64,000 nt of DNA from Patescibacteria group bacterium (lineage in GTDB: Bacteria > Patescibacteriota > Minisyncoccia > Phycocordibacterales > Phycocordibacteraceae), in the NCBI GenBank assembly GCA_019744845.1, contig JAIETW010000002.1:69759-133758 (forward strand), in the 5' to 3' direction. The position numbers and the translations under genes were made by a program. Under the pieces are notes generated by a model, which worked only from the letters and a program-made list of their open reading frames with translations, did not search any database and had not been told where the DNA came from. The first letter of the stretch is position 1. Every line of letters starts with the position of its first letter. Positions 4,815 to 25,755 of the stretch are shown one piece after another.

Positions 4815-6278
4815 ATGAAAGAGTTTCTTACTCGTCGGAACATACTCATCGCGTTAGTTATCATCGCGGGGGGAGTGGCATACTACCTTTCACAAGTCCC
4901 ACCACCAAATACAATTATCTTGAGGGAAGATGGATGGCATCCGGAGTCACTTGTGGTAGAGCCAGACACGACGGTGATCTTCGTGAATAAGACATCTCAC
5001 TCATTCTGGCCCGCATCAAATAGCCACCCACAGCACGAACGGTATCCTGAGTTTGATGCAGGTCGCCCGATGGCACCCGGAGAGTCGTGGTCGTTCACAT
5101 TTACGCGACCCGGGAAGTGGGTATTCCATGATCACCTTCGTTCTTCGTATGTGGGGAGTATTGCGGTTGGGCAAGAGTACGCAGATTACGATTGTTTGAC
5201 TGATATTGCCGATGCATCTGTCTCAGAGAAGCGTGTGTGTTGGGGTGAGAAGTTGTATGAAGAGCTGCGAGAGAATGGCGCAGCCGCCGCTTTTCGCTTA
5301 TTCGCGAATTTCTATGAGTCAGACCCAGATTTCACGAAAGTAGGGTGCCATGTAATTGCACACCAGCTTGGTGACAATGCGTATGGAGAGTATCTGCGAC
5401 AGGGGAAGAAACTTTCGGTGCTTGAGTTTCCACCAGAGTCAGTGTATTGCGGGTATGGGTATTACCACGGTATTTTTGAACACCTCATTCGCGACAATCC
5501 AGACTTTGAAATGGCAAATGCGTTTTGTCAGGATCTCGTGGCTACGTATGAAGATACGGTGCCACGAATTCGTCTCAATTGTTATCACGCGATAGGGCAC
5601 GGGTTTGTGCCGGAGCCGAGCGATGTGGAGCAATGGGGGGATGTACAAAAGATGACTGAACCCGCGATTGCCGCCTGCGCACGACTCCCTGTGTATGATG
5701 AGCGATCTGAGTGTTTCCAAGGAACATTCAATGTGATTGGAGATTGGATGTGGAACAATCAGTTTGGCTTACGGTTTAGTGAAAGTGATCCGCTTTCAGT
5801 CTGTCGCTTGTATGAAGGGGAGATTTCAGAGGCATGTTATTACGAAGTCGCGATGCGTCTTCTTCCGTACGGTGACGATGATCTTTCACGCATCTACAAT
5901 CTCTATGTGGCGCAGATAGAAAATGATCAGATTGCAGGAATGGTAATTAACTCTGCTGCAGCCGGAGTCATTGGAACGAATATTACTGACGACAATTTCA
6001 TCCCATTTCTCCATACCTGCCGTACGTTGCCCGCACGTGTGCAAGAGGACTGTCTCAAAGGGCTTACCGGAGGGTTCGTGGCACATGGAGAGCCGGAAAA
6101 CGAATATATAAAGGCAATTGATTTCTGTAGTGACGAAGAGCTCACTCCCGACGAGAAAGATATTTGTTATTGGAATATTACTCGTACCTTCAAGGACTCA
6201 TACTCAAAAGAAAAGGTGGAGCAGGTATGTACCGGAGTTGAGGTTGAATACCAGCACTATTGCTCCTACGAATCATGA
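4815..6278 (+). CDS. Exported protein: N-terminal Cys-less cupredoxin-like His-rich domain fused to Cys/His-rich family module (paralog 5; CYHAIGHGF)
   Basis: N-terminal anchor. Residues ~35-115 carry FWPASNSHPQHERYPEFD ... WVFHDHL, the same domain as 7694-8080. The C-terminal part has CHVIAHQLG, YYHGIF and CYHAIGHG. Confidence 0.65.
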   Translation: MKEFLTRRNILIALVIIAGGVAYYLSQVPPPNTIILREDGWHPESLVVEPDTTVIFVNKTSHSFWPASNSHPQHERYPEFDAGRPMAPGESWSFTFTRPGKWVFHDHLRSSYVGSIAVGQEYADYDCLTDIADASVSEKRVCWGEKLYEELRENGAAAAFRLFANFYESDPDFTKVGCHVIAHQLGDNAYGEYLRQGKKLSVLEFPPESVYCGYGYYHGIFEHLIRDNPDFEMANAFCQDLVATYEDTVPRIRLNCYHAIGHGFVPEPSDVEQWGDVQKMTEPAIAACARLPVYDERSECFQGTFNVIGDWMWNNQFGLRFSESDPLSVCRLYEGEISEACYYEVAMRLLPYGDDDLSRIYNLYVAQIENDQIAGMVINSAAAGVIGTNITDDNFIPFLHTCRTLPARVQEDCLKGLTGGFVAHGEPENEYIKAIDFCSDEELTPDEKDICYWNITRTFKDSYSKEKVEQVCTGVEVEYQHYCSYES

Positions 6279-7681
6279 AGCGAGTCGCTATTGTAGCCGG
6301 GCTTCTTGTACTGATCGCGCTGCTCGCATTCATCCCTCCTCAAAACACCATCGTCCTTAAGGACGATGGTTTTCACCCTCGCGTTCTCACCGTATCGGTG
6401 GGGGACACGGTTACGTTCACGAATGCACGTGACAAGTACTTCTGGCCTGCATCAGACTTTCATCCCACACATGCGCTGTACCCTGAGTTTGATGCGAAGG
6501 AGCCGCTTGCGCCTGGTCAGTCCTATGCCATTACCTTTACCGAGCCAGGCACCTATCCTTTTCATGATCATCTTGCTGCGTTCTATTTTGGCATCGTACA
6601 AGTACAAGACGCAGATGGCCGTGTTGTAGATGACTGTATGGAGAAAGGAGGGCAGTTCCAGTGTTGGCAGAACAAGCTGTTTCTTACACTTGCCACTGAA
6701 GGTATAGATCGTACATATGAAGAAGTCGCCACACTTTACGAAGAAGATCCGGCATTCTCAGGTTCATGCCATTACGCAGCGCACAATATAGGACTCGCAA
6801 GCTACCAGTTTTATCAGAAAGATACGGATTTTATTCTCTCCCCACGAGCCACTGCATGTGCCGCCGGTTTCTATCATGGATTCATGGAGGGATACATAGG
6901 TGCTACCGGAGACATAGAGGGCGCTGCGGAAGTTTGCGATACCATCGGCGCACGCATAGGTGAAGAAGCTCCCGATGCGCGCCTCCAGTGCTATCACGGC
7001 ATTGGACACGGTGCGGTAGAAAGTGCGGTTGCGACTTCAGGTTCGTTTGGGAGTCAGCAAAGCTTTGTGGACGCCGCACTTTCTTCGTGTGAGGAGGTGG
7101 CAGACGGAGAGCAAGAACTCTACCGCTGCGTATCTGGGGTATTCAATGGAATCGCAAATTTCTACATCATCGGTGCCTACGGTCTTTCGGTGAAGGATGA
7201 CCCTCTGTTGCTCTGCGCGAATCAGCCAGAAGTATACAAAGAAGCGTGCTACGGAAACATGAACTCAGTAGTGTATTACGAAGCCAGGGGAGAGTTTACC
7301 CCTGCAGTGGAAGAAGTATTTTCTATTCCTGACGTCACCGAACGTCCGAAAGCACTTGAGTACCTTCTTCTTCTGTTCGCGCTTAATCACATTCAGGATG
7401 AGTCGCTCGCACCGCTCATACAAGAGTGTCAGGCGCTGCCGGATTCCTATGTCGCCTCATGTCTTGGTGGGTTGGTACGCGGGCTTCTTGAACACGGTAT
7501 TCCAGGGAAAGAGTATGAAAAAGCCTTGAATCTGTGCCGTGAATCAACTCTCACCGCAGCAGAGCGTGATGCGTGTTATGCCATCGTACTTACGGGCGCG
7601 GATGGATGGTACGGGGCTGAGAAAGTGAAGGAGATTTGTGCCTCCGTACCAGTGCAGGAACAGGCGTATTGCACGCCGTGA
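6275..7681 (+). CDS. Exported protein: N-terminal cupredoxin-like His-rich domain fused to Cys/His-rich family module (paralog 6; CYHGIGHGAVE)
   Basis: Start set at the internal ATG (MKRVAIV...) that overlaps the upstream stop as ATGA; the track ORF begins at 6260. Carries FWPASDFHPTHALYPEFD ... YPFHDHL, then CHYAAHNIG, FYHGFMEGY and CYHGIGHG. Confidence 0.65.
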   Translation: MKRVAIVAGLLVLIALLAFIPPQNTIVLKDDGFHPRVLTVSVGDTVTFTNARDKYFWPASDFHPTHALYPEFDAKEPLAPGQSYAITFTEPGTYPFHDHLAAFYFGIVQVQDADGRVVDDCMEKGGQFQCWQNKLFLTLATEGIDRTYEEVATLYEEDPAFSGSCHYAAHNIGLASYQFYQKDTDFILSPRATACAAGFYHGFMEGYIGATGDIEGAAEVCDTIGARIGEEAPDARLQCYHGIGHGAVESAVATSGSFGSQQSFVDAALSSCEEVADGEQELYRCVSGVFNGIANFYIIGAYGLSVKDDPLLLCANQPEVYKEACYGNMNSVVYYEARGEFTPAVEEVFSIPDVTERPKALEYLLLLFALNHIQDESLAPLIQECQALPDSYVASCLGGLVRGLLEHGIPGKEYEKALNLCRESTLTAAERDACYAIVLTGADGWYGAEKVKEICASVPVQEQAYCTP

Positions 7682-18669: not shown

Positions 18670-19635
18670 ATGGAAAGTACCAAGCCGAATTCGTTGGTAG
18701 TGGCTGCGGGCGTGATTATTCTAATTGTGCTTCTCGTTCTTGCCGTTGCCTATCTGCCGTTTTTGAGTGGAGTGAAAAGTTGGTGGGATGTGGTGACTGC
18801 GCCTGCTGCAGTAAAAGAAGTGGGATACCTTGGACTTGAAGACGGGAAGGGAGTGGTCTACACCGTCGGCATGTTCGGCATTCACACACGTTCATTTGAA
18901 GGAATGTCCGTCATAGACTATGTGGCGAAGGGGTCATCTCAAGTGGCAGTACTTAAATCAGGAGATGTTTACGATGTGTACGACGTCTCATCTTCTGAGC
19001 CGGTGAAGCTTACGACTGATGGACGCCAGAAAGACTCACTAGATATTTCATCTGATGGATTGAAGGTGGTGTATGGCGTGAAAGTACGCGCAACCACATT
19101 TGCGGGAGCGGGCGAGAATGATCAGATATACAATCTTCCTGATTGGGAAGTGCATGAGATAGATATGCTCTCTCGCACGTCTCGTGTTGTTGGGCCAGGC
19201 AATCACCCTCGCTTTTATGCAGACGGGATTCTTTACCCAGCCCCTGCAGGATTCGTGTACCGTGTAGCGGGTGACAATGGCATCTTTGATGCGCTTGATA
19301 CCTGGAGCATCTATCCCGATGTGATGGCGTATCGTGTCCTTCGTCTTCCGGTACTGACGGACGCAGGGCTCATGGCATTCCCAAGTGTCGCCACCTCTGC
19401 CTATGATGCAGTATCGGTAACTTCAGTGGCACCACTCGCATTTGCAGCAGCACCCGACGCACCGATTGACGTACCGCCAGGCACCTACGACCTTATGATT
19501 CGTGGAGATCATGAGTATGTCCTTCTTCAAGGTGCGAGGGGAGCCGTAGTCGCGAAACTTACTGACGGAGCTATGAGGCAGGTCTTCACCTTCCCTGCGT
19601 CCTATGCCCCGCAGCGGTTCGCTCACATTCGTTAG
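18670..19635 (+). CDS. Membrane-anchored hypothetical protein (possible beta-propeller-like ectodomain)
   Basis: N-terminal TM (LVVAAGVIILIVLLVLAVAYL). DISSDGLKVVY-type segments. Sits directly upstream of a giant secreted protein. Confidence 0.5.
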   Translation: MESTKPNSLVVAAGVIILIVLLVLAVAYLPFLSGVKSWWDVVTAPAAVKEVGYLGLEDGKGVVYTVGMFGIHTRSFEGMSVIDYVAKGSSQVAVLKSGDVYDVYDVSSSEPVKLTTDGRQKDSLDISSDGLKVVYGVKVRATTFAGAGENDQIYNLPDWEVHEIDMLSRTSRVVGPGNHPRFYADGILYPAPAGFVYRVAGDNGIFDALDTWSIYPDVMAYRVLRLPVLTDAGLMAFPSVATSAYDAVSVTSVAPLAFAAAPDAPIDVPPGTYDLMIRGDHEYVLLQGARGAVVAKLTDGAMRQVFTFPASYAPQRFAHIR

Positions 19636-19637
19636 TT

Positions 19638-21470
19638 ATGAACTTATCTATGAAAACTTCACACCTCTCAGTTGCTGGGCTCGTGTTTCTCGCCGTTGTG
19701 GCGATCGTGCAGTTCTCTCCGACACAGCTCGCGATGGCGCAGTGTGGCGGGGCGGGGAGCTTCAGTGGATTTAGTGGGCCAAGCTACATCGTGATAGATG
19801 GGATTATGGGTGATGTGTATTACTCGGGGAATATGGGTGGAGGGGTGGAGTGGGATCCAGTATTCCATGCCATGTTTGGAGATACTGTTAATCAACTTCC
19901 TTCAAAAGACTTCTTCAGCTTTCTCTTCCCAGAGAATATCTTTGCGCAGTGTGGGAACATCAACCCTCCTCCCTCATCTCCATCCGTATCGTTGACCGCA
20001 ACCCCCGGATCAATTAATTCTGGAGGAAACTCAGTACTCACCTGGAGCGGACAAAATGTGGTGTCTTGTACGGGGACTGGTTTCTCCACGGGAGGTAATA
20101 CCTCTGGTTCCGTGAACGTATCCCCTGATGACACCACGACCTACAGCATTACGTGTTCCACCACCGGCGGCGGATCAGGGAACTGGGAACTCAGTGACTC
20201 ATACACGACTGATTACTCGTGTCCTTTGTCGAGCGACAGAGTGGATCGTCCACACCGCCATGTCCCAGACTGTCCGACAGGCTCACCTGAAGGAAATGCG
20301 TGTAGCCCAGGTGGCACCAGTTGTAAGGTGAACTATGCGTCGGGGTGTAACGTAATTTCCGATATTTATTCATGTGAGGCAGATGGTGGTGTAGGTCAAA
20401 CAGTCAGTGATACCGCAACCGTTACCGTGAGTGCGTGTACGCCTTCGTACAACTCCTCACGGTGGTACACCGGTGGTACAGAAGTCGCAGTCTCCTCTCT
20501 TGAGATGGGAAATAGCGCAGCTGACTGTCGCACAATAACTCCAGGCAATATTGAGTACACATCCTGGAATCGTCAGGTGCAGTACCAAGACGGAGGTGTT
20601 GCTACGTATGATCCAGTGCGGACCATGTGTTGGTACTACAATGGTGCCACAGGCACGGAAAGCAAGCCAGGACAGAGTCAGGGTGATTGGTACTTCCACT
20701 ACGACTCAGGAAGTACGTGTACAGTTCCGGCAGTACCGCAGTGTTCAAACGGCGCGGACGATGATGGCGACGGGTACGTTGACTATACGGAGGACGGAGG
20801 ATGTGAGGACGGACTTGATGACGATGAAATTGGCGATACGCTGCCGCAGTGTAGCGATGGACAAGATAACAACAGCGCAGGCGGATCAGATTATCCAAAC
20901 GATCCATCATGTACCAGTGCAGATGATGATAGCGAAGATGGAGTGACTGCAGGCGTATCTTGTTCTGTAGATTCTTCATCAGTTAGCGTGGGCGGTACGA
21001 CCACCTATCGTGCAACGGCAAATAATGGCGCAAGCGCACCATTTACTTGGACCCCTTCGGGTCAGACACTTTGTACCGGAGGTGCAAACAACACCTGTAC
21101 CTTCCCAGGCACTGGTCCGTACACCATGTCAGTACGCGCGCAGGGTGCCACGAGCCCTGCCTCGTGTCCGATTGTGACTGCAGGATGTGCAGGCCCAACC
21201 GAAGTCTCTATCACTGCAAATGGAGAAGGGGATGATGTGCGTGTGAAAGATGGGGCTGCGGCGCTCATTGAATGGGAGGTTACGACGGCAGCAGCAAGCT
21301 GTACCGTGACGGAGAACGGTGCACTTCTCACGACGCTTACACCAAACGCATGTAATGCGACTGGACAGATGAGTCGCACGATTAGTACGCAGACTACCTA
21401 CCTTCTCACCTGTGGAAGTGAGACGGACCTAGTGATCGTGAACGTAGATACGAGCCTGCTTGAGTTCTAG
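19638..21470 (+). CDS. Large secreted Cys-rich protein with MopE-like C-x-D-G-x-D-N-D repeats and conserved C-terminal module (paralog A)
   Basis: Signal peptide. CSNGADDDGDGYVDY ... CSDGQDNNSAGGSDYPNDPSC repeats. The C-terminal ~180 aa are highly similar to the C-terminus of 23563-25755. Confidence 0.6.
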   Translation: MNLSMKTSHLSVAGLVFLAVVAIVQFSPTQLAMAQCGGAGSFSGFSGPSYIVIDGIMGDVYYSGNMGGGVEWDPVFHAMFGDTVNQLPSKDFFSFLFPENIFAQCGNINPPPSSPSVSLTATPGSINSGGNSVLTWSGQNVVSCTGTGFSTGGNTSGSVNVSPDDTTTYSITCSTTGGGSGNWELSDSYTTDYSCPLSSDRVDRPHRHVPDCPTGSPEGNACSPGGTSCKVNYASGCNVISDIYSCEADGGVGQTVSDTATVTVSACTPSYNSSRWYTGGTEVAVSSLEMGNSAADCRTITPGNIEYTSWNRQVQYQDGGVATYDPVRTMCWYYNGATGTESKPGQSQGDWYFHYDSGSTCTVPAVPQCSNGADDDGDGYVDYTEDGGCEDGLDDDEIGDTLPQCSDGQDNNSAGGSDYPNDPSCTSADDDSEDGVTAGVSCSVDSSSVSVGGTTTYRATANNGASAPFTWTPSGQTLCTGGANNTCTFPGTGPYTMSVRAQGATSPASCPIVTAGCAGPTEVSITANGEGDDVRVKDGAAALIEWEVTTAAASCTVTENGALLTTLTPNACNATGQMSRTISTQTTYLLTCGSETDLVIVNVDTSLLEF

Positions 21471-22510
21471 CGTTCGTACTGAGAGAGTCCCGTACGCAAG
21501 AGTGCGTGCGGGATTTTCTCGTTCTCAAACAGCCATCTGTTCACCGTCTCAACTGCGTCAGCAGGGAGATGCGTCTCAAGAAGAGTAAAGAACATCTGCT
21601 CTGGCTGGTTGTGAAGCGTGGCAAAAAGATCGGCCACCGTTACATCCGCGCCATAGATCTCGAGCAATCCTTCAATCGCGACCATCACGAGTGGTCCAAG
21701 GATGTAATGGTCGTACTCTACTTCTCTGTAGGGAGGCATTGGTTCAGGGTACGCATGGTGGAGCTCATAGAGTGTGGAGAAGCGTGCGTGTCTCCGCTCG
21801 TTTGAAGGGAGTAGGGCAAGTTCAAGCCAACTTGCCTCAAGCTCTTGTATATCGGTACTGGAGAGAGGTGGTTGTTCGGGAAGCGGATAACTAAAGCGAT
21901 TATAGAGATGTCCCACCGCGTGGATGAAGAGCTCTTCTCCTCGTGGATTTTCAGGAGGAAGAATCAAATAACTCACGCGCTCATTGGGGTCTGGATAGAT
22001 ACTTCCTTCCTCAGTGTGAATGAATCCGAGCGCTGCTGTGACTACGACCGTGTGTGCGATTGCTTCTTCATGATCATAGAAGGCACCAATGCGTTCAAAG
22101 GCATGCCGCACCATCGCTTCATAGGCACCAGGATTTTCAATTTCCGTTGGGATAAGAAGAGAGACGGTGTAGGCACTGTCGGAGAAAGTGAGTGTGGTGG
22201 ATGCAAATGCGTCAGTTCGGATCATGACTGCGGTTTGTCCGGGAAGAAACTCAGCCCAGTCCGCGCCCTCCGCTTGAGCGCCTACCGCCATCCAACCCGA
22301 AGGGACGCACACCCGTTCTCCGGCCGTAATTGAGCTCATAAGTACGGTGCTATACCAGGTGCGATAGCCATGAGCACCAGTCTCAGGGCGCGCAGAGGGG
22401 AACGGTTCACAGGAGGAAGGGGATGCGACGACCGTGAAAACGACTCCGAGAAAAAGAACTGCAGGGATCAAAAATACACGCATGGCCTTTAGTATACGCC
22501 CGCTATACAC
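21467..22510 (-). CDS. Secreted hypothetical protein
   Basis: Signal peptide (MRVFLIPAVLFLGVVFTVVASP), 347 aa. Convergent with, and overlapping the stop of, the upstream large gene. Confidence 0.5.
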   Translation of the reverse strand: MYSGRILKAMRVFLIPAVLFLGVVFTVVASPSSCEPFPSARPETGAHGYRTWYSTVLMSSITAGERVCVPSGWMAVGAQAEGADWAEFLPGQTAVMIRTDAFASTTLTFSDSAYTVSLLIPTEIENPGAYEAMVRHAFERIGAFYDHEEAIAHTVVVTAALGFIHTEEGSIYPDPNERVSYLILPPENPRGEELFIHAVGHLYNRFSYPLPEQPPLSSTDIQELEASWLELALLPSNERRHARFSTLYELHHAYPEPMPPYREVEYDHYILGPLVMVAIEGLLEIYGADVTVADLFATLHNQPEQMFFTLLETHLPADAVETVNRWLFENEKIPHALLRTGLSQYER

Positions 22511-22555
22511 ATAGCTTGGCCCTCAGAGAGGGAACAGGCACTACAATAGATACAT

Positions 22556-23551
22556 ATGACGCGAACCCGTATCATCGTGCTCACGGTACTCATTATTATA
22601 ATTCTCGGCGTGCTTGGGTACCTCGGCCTCATGTTCTTTGGTTACCAGCGTGCGGAGAATGCGCTCCCAGAGCAGGGAAGTGAGATATTGTTTGTGGATC
22701 GTGGAGTGGGCGAGCGCTATGTCATGGAAGGCAAGGCACTGGTTCTCGCCATGCCTGAACCACTCCCTGACGGCATTGTCGTTCATGAGAGTGTGCCATC
22801 TCCACTGGTTGCGGGTGAGTCAGTCATTCTTGCGACTGCACCGGGCGTGCCAGGGATGATTGCGGGTATCGCACACACCGATGGTGATGTCACTCTTCTT
22901 GCTGCAGGAGGTACCAGCAAGTCTAATCTCCTTGTGCGTGAGGACGGCCGTGCAATTTTTGTCACGAATCCTTCGGTTGTAATTGAAGAGGCGTCTGCGG
23001 GTGAAGAGGGGGCTGAGGATACGGTGGAAGAGACCGGGTCTGCATCAGAGCCATCCTCTCCCGCACTTGCGGCACAGGCTCCCGCATCTACTCCTTCGCA
23101 GCTCATCTCTGTGCACATTGGCACGGGTACCATCACCGCGCTCGGTGTAGGCCATGGACCGCGCCTACTTGCGGACGGATCAATACTCGCGCTTTCTAAG
23201 CAGGGTGTGGTGAAAATAAATCCAGTGACGGGTGATCGCTCCCTCATCCTTCCGTACGAAAGTACGGATACTCCTGCGGGCGGCATCTCACCATCAGGAA
23301 CAGTGGTGGCGCTTTCAGGTGCTGACGTGGGACAGCTTGAGTTCTATCGCATTAATCCAAGTGGCGCTGCCGCACCAGTGCATCTTGGATTCGTAGAGTT
23401 TGAAGGCGATATTACTCGCGTTGCCTTTACTGATGACGAACATCTCTTCTTGCGCACCAATGTACAAGTCGCACGACTGTACCAGATACCAACCGAATCG
23501 TTGCCAGTTGCGACACCACTGGCGATTCTCTTAGTCGCACAACCTGAATAA
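22556..23551 (+). CDS. Membrane-anchored hypothetical protein
   Basis: N-terminal TM (IIVLTVLIIIILGVLGYLGLMFF) and an acidic Ala/Ser-rich linker. Same position relative to a giant secreted protein as 18670-19635. Confidence 0.5.
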   Translation: MTRTRIIVLTVLIIIILGVLGYLGLMFFGYQRAENALPEQGSEILFVDRGVGERYVMEGKALVLAMPEPLPDGIVVHESVPSPLVAGESVILATAPGVPGMIAGIAHTDGDVTLLAAGGTSKSNLLVREDGRAIFVTNPSVVIEEASAGEEGAEDTVEETGSASEPSSPALAAQAPASTPSQLISVHIGTGTITALGVGHGPRLLADGSILALSKQGVVKINPVTGDRSLILPYESTDTPAGGISPSGTVVALSGADVGQLEFYRINPSGAAAPVHLGFVEFEGDITRVAFTDDEHLFLRTNVQVARLYQIPTESLPVATPLAILLVAQPE

Positions 23552-23562
23552 CATTCTCGCGT

Positions 23563-25755
23563 ATGACACATACATCTCTCATGCAGACAGTTCTAGGGAA
23601 GGCACTAATGGCGAGTGTGCTCTTCGCGGTCCTGCTCACCTTTATTGCTCCAATGACAGCACACGCTATTTTCCGTGAATCCGATCAGGAAGGCGGAGGA
23701 GGGGATTGGGGTGGCGGAGGAGGAGGTGGGGGTGGCGGTACGACCGCTGAGTGTGCCGACGGCGTTGATAACGACGGCAACGGAGTGACCGACTATCCAA
23801 GCGATCTCGGATGTACCAGTTACTCTGACACGACCGAGTCTGGGTATACGGTTGCCACACAATGTGCCGACGGCGTCGATAACGACAGGAACGGACTTAT
23901 AGATACGAACGATCCTGGCTGTTCTTCGGGGTCAGATAGTTCTGAGTCTGGATACACTACGCAATGTTCAGATGGTTCTGACAACGACGGGAACGGATAC
24001 AGAGATATTGGCGACCCAGGATGTTCCTCACTCTCAGACACGTCTGAGTCAGGATACGTTCGCCCACCTGCACCTCCTCCAGGTGTTGAAGTATATAAAA
24101 CACAGAGTAAACGTGACTACTACGTGAAAGTACAGCCAGACCAGCTTGCCAATGGTGGATTAGATGAGACGTCTGCGCACGGCTACCCTACGTATTCAAC
24201 TGGGCAAGCATCGCCAACAGGTAATCGTATTTGTTATCTCTACGATCCAACCGCCTTTATTACCGAGTGGTCGCTCGGAGGATTTAGTTCCCCAGGAAAC
24301 AACAGCATGGCTGCGTGGAATCCCTCAACGGGGAAATGGTACCGGGGGTCTGCAGGCAGCTTCGGCAACCTGCGCTATAACTATTTGACATGTAAGACGA
24401 ACGCAACCCCCGACACGTCACTCACTGCAACTGCAAACGGTACGACAGGGTCAAGCCTCTCCGTTACTTCAGGTACACCGGTTACCCTTACCTGGCTCTC
24501 ACAATGGGGGCAGACTCGTAAAGGAAGCTTCACAGCACAAAACTACAGCCTCACCACAACGACTGCGGGGTATTGGCAAACGGTAACTAATTATATCTGT
24601 GGCTATGATGGTGGAGGCGGTGGAGGAGACTCTGACTTCTTTTACGACTACGTGGCTTCTGGTCCTCAAAACACCCTAACGGCACAAGCGGGTGGTTCTT
24701 GTTGGGAAACCAGCACCGTGTGGGTAGCAGGATCAACAACGTATCGTCCATACGGTGGTACGACGGTCGTCACGCCGACCCAAACGACGACGTATACCTA
24801 CACAGGTACAAATGCGAACGGTTCTTCAAGTGCAAGCGTTACGGTGACCGTAACTGGAGAAGGTACGCTCTCCTCCAGTACATGTTCAGTAGATCCTATT
24901 GTTGCTGGAACAGGAGATAGTGTTACCTGGACGGCAGCGCCAGTTGGTGGCACTGGCACGTATAGCTACGTGTGGTCAGGAACCGACAGTTTGAGTGGTA
25001 CCACACAATCTGTGGTGAAGTCGTATAGCTCAGAAGGCGCGAAGACTGGAAGCGTACAGATCACCTCAGGTACTGAAGTTGCAAATATCAGTTGTACAAC
25101 CAGCCTCACCATCTCTAATGCTCCTGCATGTAATAACGGCGTGGATGATGATGGGGCAGGAGGAGCAGACTATCCTGCCGATCCATCCTGCAACAGTCTC
25201 ACCGATGATTCGGAAGACGGAAACGTAGTAGGCGCATCAGTGTCCTGTACGGTTGACTCTGCAGTCGTGACCGCTGGTACACAGACGACCTATCGGGTAA
25301 CCCCGGCAGGAGGAGCAACTGCACCGTACACATGGACCCCATCAAGTCAGACTGGTTGTACGGGAGGAGCAAATAACACGTGTACCTTTACCAACCCAGG
25401 TCCGTACACAATGTCAGTCCAGGCATCTAATAGTGCACCGGTGTCCTGTCCGGTCGTGACGGTGGGTTGTGTGGGTACTCCTGAAGTGTCCCTTACCGCG
25501 AATGGAGAAGCAGAAGACACTCGTGTAAACGTCGGAGAGGCAGCAACGATTGCATGGGAAGCAGAGGGAATCTCCGCTACCTCTTGTACGCTCTATGAGA
25601 ACGAGGTGGCGATCCAGACGCTGACGCCAAATGCCTGTAACGTGACTGGTTCTGTGGCACGCACGATTGATACCCAGATGGTCTATACCCTCAACTGTGA
25701 TGGGGAGACCTCAACGGTGATCGTGAACATAGACGCGGGTCCTGAGGAGTTCTAG
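23563..25755 (+). CDS. Large secreted protein with poly-Gly tract, three tandem MopE-like putative metal-binding repeats and conserved C-terminal module (paralog B)
   Basis: Signal peptide. GGGGDWGGGGGGGGGG. Repeats CADGVDNDGNGVTDYPSDLGCTS, CADGVDNDRNGLIDTNDPGCSS and CSDGSDNDGNGYRDIGDPGCSS. The C-terminus is shared with 19638-21470. Confidence 0.65.
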   Translation: MTHTSLMQTVLGKALMASVLFAVLLTFIAPMTAHAIFRESDQEGGGGDWGGGGGGGGGGTTAECADGVDNDGNGVTDYPSDLGCTSYSDTTESGYTVATQCADGVDNDRNGLIDTNDPGCSSGSDSSESGYTTQCSDGSDNDGNGYRDIGDPGCSSLSDTSESGYVRPPAPPPGVEVYKTQSKRDYYVKVQPDQLANGGLDETSAHGYPTYSTGQASPTGNRICYLYDPTAFITEWSLGGFSSPGNNSMAAWNPSTGKWYRGSAGSFGNLRYNYLTCKTNATPDTSLTATANGTTGSSLSVTSGTPVTLTWLSQWGQTRKGSFTAQNYSLTTTTAGYWQTVTNYICGYDGGGGGGDSDFFYDYVASGPQNTLTAQAGGSCWETSTVWVAGSTTYRPYGGTTVVTPTQTTTYTYTGTNANGSSSASVTVTVTGEGTLSSSTCSVDPIVAGTGDSVTWTAAPVGGTGTYSYVWSGTDSLSGTTQSVVKSYSSEGAKTGSVQITSGTEVANISCTTSLTISNAPACNNGVDDDGAGGADYPADPSCNSLTDDSEDGNVVGASVSCTVDSAVVTAGTQTTYRVTPAGGATAPYTWTPSSQTGCTGGANNTCTFTNPGPYTMSVQASNSAPVSCPVVTVGCVGTPEVSLTANGEAEDTRVNVGEAATIAWEAEGISATSCTLYENEVAIQTLTPNACNVTGSVARTIDTQMVYTLNCDGETSTVIVNIDAGPEEF

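Follow-up and report, generated by a model that had tools for sequence, protein, structure and literature searches.

Tandem acidic repeats of a patescibacterial surface protein are probably calcium-binding, single-disulfide spacer modules of the NF033662 family

What do the tandem acidic repeats near the N terminus of a secreted patescibacterial protein bind, and what might they do for the protein that carries them? The protein comprises 730 amino acids (aa) and is encoded by an open reading frame (ORF) at 23563..25755, on the plus strand and ending in a TAG stop codon, of a 64,000-nucleotide stretch of contig JAIETW010000002.1 (the window, to which all coordinates refer). An earlier note on this DNA had likened the repeats to those of MopE-type copper-binding surface proteins and had named a Ca2+-binding module as one alternative. 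That alternative is the better reading, and the best solved relative of the repeats is the Ca2+-binding C-rich domain of teneurin. By analogy with this domain, the four repeats of the protein are probably small Ca2+-binding modules of the NF033662 family, each closed by a single disulfide, and the three N-terminal ones probably act as a spacer or stalk.

As the note had described, three acidic repeats follow a signal peptide and a poly-Gly tract. The signal peptide is followed by EGGGGDWGGGGGGGGGG, and aa 43-61 read EGGGGDWGGGGGGGGGGTT, exactly as quoted there. The repeats begin at C64, C101, and C135 (nucleotides 23752, 23863, and 23965). Repeat 1 (aa 64-95; 23752..23847) is CADGVDNDGNGVTDYPSDLGC-TSYSDTTESGY, with a C64-C84 loop and a tail containing D89 and E92; repeat 2 (aa 101-131; 23863..23955) is CADGVDNDRNGLIDTNDPGC-SSGSDSSESGY, with a C101-C120 loop and a tail containing D125 and E128; and repeat 3 (aa 135-165; 23965..24057) is CSDGSDNDGNGYRDIGDPGC-SSLSDTSESGY, with a C135-C154 loop and a tail containing D159 and E162. 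Each unit has exactly two Cys, which bound a loop of 20-21 residues, C-[AS]-D-G-x-D-N-D-x-N-G-x-x-D-(x)-x-x-D-x-G-C, and a Ser/Thr-rich tail with a conserved Asp and Glu follows, ...S-D-x-x-E-S-G-Y. A D-x-[DN]-x-[DN]-G-x-[ILV]-x-x-[DE] loop is present in repeats 1-3, e.g., D106-N-D108-R-N110-G111-L-I113-D114; counted from the first Cys as 0, position +9 is Asn, not Asp, in these three units.

The repeats are less regular than "perfect," the word used for them before: pairwise identity ranges from 57 to 71% for protein and is about 66-70% for DNA, and successive units start 37 and 34 aa apart, not some 40 aa. Tandem Repeats Finder detected only the Gly-coding stretch, so there is no sign of a recent duplication of the repeats at the DNA level. 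The additional copies reported earlier are all present. A fourth copy in the target (aa 523-553, C523-C543; 25129..25221, plus strand) is the fourth stretch matched by NF033662 and is degenerate, with Ala at the +9 ligand position. Paralog A, the product of a neighboring plus-strand gene (19638..21470), has two copies (C369-C389 and C405-C425; 20742..20942) separated by a degenerate acidic stretch, the second again with Ala at +9. A check of all reading frames revealed no further copies elsewhere in the window. Orthologues encoded by other genomes have repeats that line up with these in register; across orthologues and related family members, between 0 and 5 N-terminal copies occur on an otherwise conserved protein.

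We compared the protein with the NCBIfam model NF033662 (acid_disulf_rpt, "acidic double-disulfide repeat"), a curated repeat hidden Markov model (HMM) of 32 positions with a cutoff of 41 bits. The target passed this cutoff with 72.4 bits (E = 1.8e-20) over four matched stretches, and repeat 2 alone reached 36.4 bits; paralog A stayed below threshold at 18.3 bits. Together with the alignment of orthologues in register, these scores place the repeat pattern far above chance. All four target copies have the two Cys of model positions 7 and 26, which surround the D-N-D-x-D-G core, and the later Asp of the model is found in the target repeats as well. Replacing both Cys with Ser in silico lowered the score of repeat 2 from 36.4 to 23.2 bits, a loss of 13 bits. 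Introducing T115C, at model position 21, raised it by 4.3 bits, indicating that the model mildly prefers Cys there, as in teneurin; an extra Cys at model position 32, the only other position tried in looking for the model's fourth Cys, brought no gain. The target differs from the family description in two respects. The family name implies two disulfides, whereas the target units have two Cys and hence one possible disulfide, and in the copies from the Candidate Phyla Radiation (CPR) Asn takes the place of Asp at +9 and the tail, ...E-[SA]-G-Y, is peculiar to the lineage. Exactly two Cys were found in 757 of 770 units of homologues, and two-Cys proteins of Myxococcota and other phyla score 187-264 bits against the model. 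The target repeats are unremarkable additions to this common family, which one library has curated.

This family is large. When a profile built from 100 repeat units was run against 1.84 billion cluster representatives, it retrieved 16,931 proteins at E <= 1e-3 and 7,002 at the stricter limit of E <= 1e-10. Single proteins had a maximum of 44 copies, and some metagenomic proteins with 30-44 copies of the two-Cys acidic module reach about 6,000 aa. The named carriers in the homologue search belong mostly to Myxococcota, Bradymonadia, and Patescibacteria, and among the domains found alongside the module are subtilases, PKD, CARDB, Calx-beta, and He_PIG. Over about 1,000 units, the Cys pair and offsets +2, +5, +6, +7, +9, +13, and +16 are 93-100% conserved. 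Among the columns not imposed by the search pattern, Asp at +16/17 is conserved in 93-100%, the tail Asp at +24/25 in 70-85%, and the tail Glu at +27/28 in 77-99%. Across distant phyla, strict conservation extends to the Cys pair, Gly +10, Asp at +5, +7, +13, and +16-17, and the tail Glu. His, Trp, and Met each account for <0.4% of residues in these units and are absent from the copies in the window. Additional Cys are rare: a Cys at +14, equivalent to teneurin C852, occurs in 6 of 2,920 family units, and one at +8, as in the Pfam model PF11617, occurs in 2 of 2,920.

The teneurins suggest which ion the repeats may bind. When the raw repeat segment was searched against the PDB with phmmer, teneurin-4 (7PLP) was the best of six matches (E = 0.019). 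The 100-repeat profile likewise ranked 7PLP first (E = 0.0011), with teneurin-m and teneurin-2 next and calmodulin EF-hand loops thereafter. MopE (2VOV) was neither among the six phmmer matches nor among the 60 profile matches listed. It is repeat 2 that matches teneurin-4 C838-C857 best, both by phmmer and by hmmsearch against the PDB. The C-rich peptide of teneurin-4, a single copy, itself passes the NF033662 cutoff with 42.1 bits, and when the repeats were compared as a profile with nine teneurin cores by hhalign, the probability was 97.2% (E = 3e-11).

The C-rich domain of human teneurin-4 (residues 834-871) has been solved at 1.5 Å with three Ca2+ (Meijer et al. 2022, PMC9058538). Its ligands are the side chains of E835, D840, D843, N844, D845, D847, D851, D854, and D856 and the carbonyls of A837, K842, and L849; disulfides link C838 to C857, C852 to C863, and C858 to C869; and the coordination at sites I and II follows that of the T3 repeats of thrombospondin TSP-1 (PMC9058538). 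The bacterial and teneurin sequences have in common the core C-x-D-x-x-D-N-D-x-D-G-L-x-D-x-x-D-P-x-C. Repeats 1-3 match seven of the nine side-chain ligand positions (D+2, D+5, N+6, D+7, N+9, D+13, and D+16/17), all three backbone-ligand positions can be aligned, and the Cys spacing of 19 is identical to that of C838-C857. The teneurin domain, however, occurs as one copy with six Cys forming three disulfides (1-3, 2-5, and 4-6), whereas the bacterial unit has only the 1-3 pair, and it possesses a third, LDL-A-like Ca site that uses E835 and D856, the equivalents of which are both absent in the bacterial unit. The latter, unlike teneurin, has a conserved D-x-x-E tail and forms tandem arrays. 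Because Asp +16/17, the tail Asp, and the tail Glu are strongly conserved family-wide, the sequence suggests that this tail supplies the ligands missing relative to teneurin.

To place the loops among known metal-binding classes, we examined structural predictions and Pfam matches. An AlphaFold2 (AF2) model of aa 60-177, built with 50 tri-repeat segments, reached a predicted local distance difference test (pLDDT) of 86.6, with repeat 1 at about 90, and contained three-residue turns only, with no regular secondary structure. A confident model of this type is as expected for loops organized by ions. Its sole Foldseek match in the PDB was 7PLP, which was not significant (E = 7.5). EF-hand_5 matched 16 of 50 family segments (best E = 1.9e-7) and EF-hand_1 matched 10 of 50, both weakly. 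No match to the Pfam TSP_3, dockerin, or EGF models was found on the repeat segment (E <= 10) or on the 50 family segments (E <= 1). Membership of the thrombospondin type 3, dockerin, or EGF/LDL-A families was rejected on these searches. The target nonetheless resembles thrombospondin type 3 and other DxDxDG loops (EF-hand, dockerin, and Excalibur), which are a motif class and not a homologous family, in having Asp-rich loops that lack regular secondary structure and that would hold Ca2+ and be braced by disulfides; it differs in Cys spacing and repeat length and in having no EF-hand helices.

From the features computed here, namely repeat anatomy, HMM family membership, similarity to the teneurin Ca sites, a lack of copper-type ligands, copy-number variation, and an immunoglobulin (Ig)-like architecture, we infer Ca2+ binding and its stoichiometry, an intra-repeat disulfide, and a spacer role, which would fit together as follows. 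The Cys-to-Cys loop of about 20 residues, with a DxDxDG-type core D-N-D-x-[N/D]-G-x-[ILV]-D and additional Asp at +2 and +16/17, would constitute a doubled-up Ca2+ site. By analogy with teneurin-4, its side chains, aided by two or three carbonyls of the backbone, would wrap about two Ca2+, and a disulfide between C(0) and C(+19/20) would close the loop. The D-x-x-E tail would cap the loop, probably completing the coordination. Loading with Ca2+ may turn an otherwise structureless acidic segment into a compact, protease-resistant bead. Three such beads, between the poly-Gly tether and a Pro-rich linker, would form a spacer or stalk of variable length, on which a secreted protein of a Paceibacterota (CPR) bacterium would display its conserved alpha/beta head and Ig-like domains at the cell surface.

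Several points weigh against this account. Ca2+ binding by the bacterial family members is argued from teneurin, and the similarity to teneurin is confined to some 22 acidic, low-complexity residues, carries a high HMMER bias term, and could be convergent. Two teneurin ligand positions (E835 and D856) and two of the three disulfides are missing. Moreover, Asn replaces Asp at +9 in repeats 1-3, and Ala occupies this position in repeat 4 and in paralog A copy 2. The spacer role, for its part, is drawn from two features, position and copy-number variation.

Three other explanations were weighed against Ca2+-binding spacers. In the first, the repeats would be Ca2+-dependent docking or adhesive modules, their surface binding a partner protein, a host polysaccharide, or the S-layer in the course of episymbiosis. 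Dockerins use duplicated DxDxDG-type loops, and the modules lie farthest out on a secreted protein that is rich in Ig domains and resembles adhesins. Furthermore, the teneurin-4 C-rich domain participates in a Ca2+-stabilized protein interface (PMC9058538). However, neither a dockerin (PF00404) nor a cohesin match was obtained (E <= 10 and E <= 1), and the AF2 model has no helices flanking the loops. The N-terminal copy number varies freely, and some members without N-terminal repeats keep the alpha/beta domain, a pattern that suits a spacer better than a binding head. The module also occurs in up to 44 copies beside unrelated catalytic and adhesive domains (subtilases, PKD, CARDB, and Calx-beta). 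On balance, we consider a docking function unlikely.

The second alternative is that the segment is a metal-free, acidic, Ser/Thr-rich disordered linker, possibly glycosylated, in which the Asp/Asn pattern reflects composition only. The segment is indeed of low complexity, acidic, and rich in Ser and Thr, and neither AF2 model gives it regular secondary structure. Nevertheless, the position-specific conservation over about 1,000 units from distant phyla is strict, and the AF2 confidence of the repeat model is high; disordered linkers show neither such confidence nor such conservation. We therefore regard a mere linker as very improbable.

The third alternative is the one first proposed for this locus, namely that the repeats are MopE-type and capture copper at the cell surface, as proposed for Methylococcus MopE. 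The Pfam model PF11617 (Cu-binding_MopE), which has 30 positions and a gathering cutoff of 27 bits, was searched as the note had suggested. It did not match the full-length target at E <= 1, a Pfam scan of the target and its paralog gave nothing relevant, and single repeats gave no Pfam match. On the excised 110-aa repeat segment, PF11617 scored 17.5 bits (E = 0.0049), below the gathering cutoff and over profile positions 17-29 of 30 only, and similar subthreshold matches occurred in 21 of 50 family segments. The likeness to the PF11617 core is real at the motif level, where the target, the profile, and MopE* have the sequence C-x-D-G-x-D-N-D-x-D-G-x-x-D in common, but it is weak. The internal Cys of the Pfam motif (DND-C-DG) is replaced by Gly or Arg at +8 in the target, and the Pfam repeat is in another phase, beginning with D-C-x-D-x-x-P-x-x-x-P-G-A-x-E, a half that is absent from the match.

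Within MopE itself, the Cu(I) site is located outside the motif. The latter lies within residues 3-44 of the MopE* chain (PDB 2VOV), the N-terminal 46 residues of which are invisible in the crystal, being disordered or cleaved, while the high-affinity Cu(I) site is formed by His132, His203, and kynurenine-130 (Ve et al. 2012, PMC3423442). By immobilized metal affinity chromatography, a weak, micromolar affinity for Cu(II) was traced to the first 24 residues of MopE*, which bear the motif (PMC3423442); in the same study, CaCl2 protected MopE* against proteolytic degradation. CorA, like MopE, has a Cu site and a separate Ca site in its beta core (Johnson et al. 2014, PMC3912023). The repeats, in which there is no His or Trp, offer no counterpart of the His-His-kynurenine(Trp) Cu(I) site of MopE and CorA, and no sequence match to 2VOV was listed. 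They also contain no Met, their sole Cys residues correspond to a structural disulfide in teneurin, and every conserved ligand position holds a hard oxygen donor, as is usual for Ca2+ sites.

The genomic setting likewise gives copper little support. No copper, methane-oxidation, pMMO, or SACCP genes adjoin the target, which is syntenic with housekeeping genes. A 473-aa ORF at 6260-7681 has a cupredoxin-like domain (PF13473, 29.4 bits), the only copper-type domain in the window; considered as a possible copper context, this ORF was set aside, since it lies 17 kb upstream of the target and is probably unrelated. Tucker et al. had placed PF11617 and the teneurin C-rich core in one alignment (2012, PMC3278476) under the name Cu-binding, and the structure solved later showed Ca2+. 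The MopE-like resemblance therefore holds for the motif but does not extend to a copper function. Copper-capturing repeats are, in short, a reading that can scarcely be upheld.

To return to the protein that the putative Ca2+-binding spacers would serve, its assignment as a secreted surface protein (23563..25755, plus strand) draws on the ORF list, the orthologue alignment, the AF2 model, and Foldseek matches to tandem-Ig adhesion molecules. The order of its parts, all on the plus strand, is signal peptide, Gly tract, three acidic repeats, Pro linker, alpha/beta domain, Ig-like domains, repeat 4, and two C-terminal Ig-like domains, with the end ...PEEF; this architecture is conserved in the alignment of patescibacterial and paceibacterotal orthologues. 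The N terminus (aa 1-35; 23563..23667) appears to be a typical Sec-type signal peptide, with a basic n-region, a hydrophobic helix at aa 10-24 in the AF2 model, and the sequence ...APMTAHA/IF, in which cleavage after AHA was placed by eye. The Gly tract GGGGDWGGGGGGGGGG (aa 44-59, of the GGGGDWG10 type; 23689..23739) is a likely flexible tether, Gly-rich also in the orthologues and with a pLDDT of <50. Beyond the repeats, the Pro-rich linker VRPPAPPP (24058..24081) corresponds to a PPPxPxxG motif conserved in orthologues, with a pLDDT of <50 at aa 165-171.

The domain that follows (aa 174-345; 24082..24597) combines alpha/beta and beta-sandwich elements, is specific to this family, and shows high pLDDT and many invariant residues, including the motifs TQSKRD, AHGYP, WSLGGF, and NSFGNKRYNY. 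No Pfam or PDB sequence relative was matched, and the domain is probably the functional head of the protein. A second Gly-rich loop of low confidence (GGGGGGDSDFF...; aa 346-378, 24598-24696) lies between the conserved C346 and C380 in the beta-rich region.

The full-length AF2 model, built with 22 family sequences, had a pLDDT of 73.7. In it the Gly tract is disordered, the repeats have a pLDDT of 62-80 and no regular secondary structure, and Ig-like sandwiches occupy aa 380-515, 557-625, and 632-723. Searched against the PDB with Foldseek, the model matched strings of Ig domains of adhesion molecules and bacterial adhesins. The two C-terminal Ig-like beta-sandwich domains (25231..25752), which end in P-x-F-x-E-[FTE], are common to paralog A; over the C-terminal 211 aa, including repeat 4, the two proteins are 59% identical. 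The C terminus itself, [LIV]-x-P-x-F-x-E-[FTEI]-COOH, is conserved across the patescibacterial family (25735-25752 in the target and 21450-21467 in paralog A), with a penultimate Glu that is invariant in 22 sequences and, in the target, the TAG stop directly after the motif. This motif may be a recognition or sorting signal or may be merely the last Ig-like strand; no transmembrane helix or known sorting motif follows it.

The nearest homologues of the target come from metagenome bins of Patescibacteria and Candidatus Paceibacterota. Upstream lie genes for transketolase, FBPase, and aldolase (pentose-phosphate pathway and glycolysis), ribosomal protein L25, and an SLT lytic transglycosylase; downstream are those for L31, RF1, S2, and EF-Ts (Tsf), and elsewhere in the window are those for DNA polymerase III alpha, gyrase B, SMC, and aminoacyl-tRNA synthetases. 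Two cassettes lie between the transglycosylase gene and rpmE. Cassette 1 (18670-21470) encodes a protein of about 320 aa and paralog A, and cassette 2 (21467-25755) comprises a minus-strand ORF of about 347 aa, an N-terminally anchored protein of 331 aa, and the target. On a related 742-kb contig (locus 5931-12825), an orthologue lies amid the same genes, with the two cassettes, each pairing a small membrane protein with a large surface protein, in the opposite order. The 331-aa protein directly upstream of the target (22556-23551) has an N-terminal transmembrane segment and a weak TadE-like match (E = 0.024) and otherwise belongs to no known family; its position is kept in the related genome. 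The two small upstream cassette proteins (about 320-330 aa) are not detectably related to each other.

A bolder extension of the proposed Ca2+-binding module is that the bacterial single-disulfide unit is the prokaryotic ancestor or sister of both the teneurin C-rich domain and the "MopE motif," with the beads acting as a Ca2+-dependent stalk that presents the head to a host cell. We hold this to be rather doubtful. If it were true, "Cu-binding" would be the wrong Pfam label for what is a general Ca2+-bead fold of extracellular proteins, and the teneurin C-rich domain could stem from bacteria together with the YD shell, not from a diatom, the origin proposed by Tucker et al. (PMC3278476). A simple pattern search for YD/RHS repeats in 261 module-carrying proteins found none that was convincing.

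Annotators should not take the motif for a copper site: teneurin-4 is the only structure in which the motif core has been resolved with a metal, that metal is Ca2+, and the MopE motif has never been resolved. The NF033662 family is very large, has no Pfam model of its own, and occurs on secreted proteases, adhesins, and S-layer-like proteins of Myxococcota, Patescibacteria, and other phyla, so that a biochemical result for one fragment would annotate thousands of proteins. In the organism studied here, the target and its paralog, both surface proteins, are encoded in a conserved housekeeping neighborhood, which makes the target a reasonable candidate for envelope or host-contact functions in CPR bacteria.

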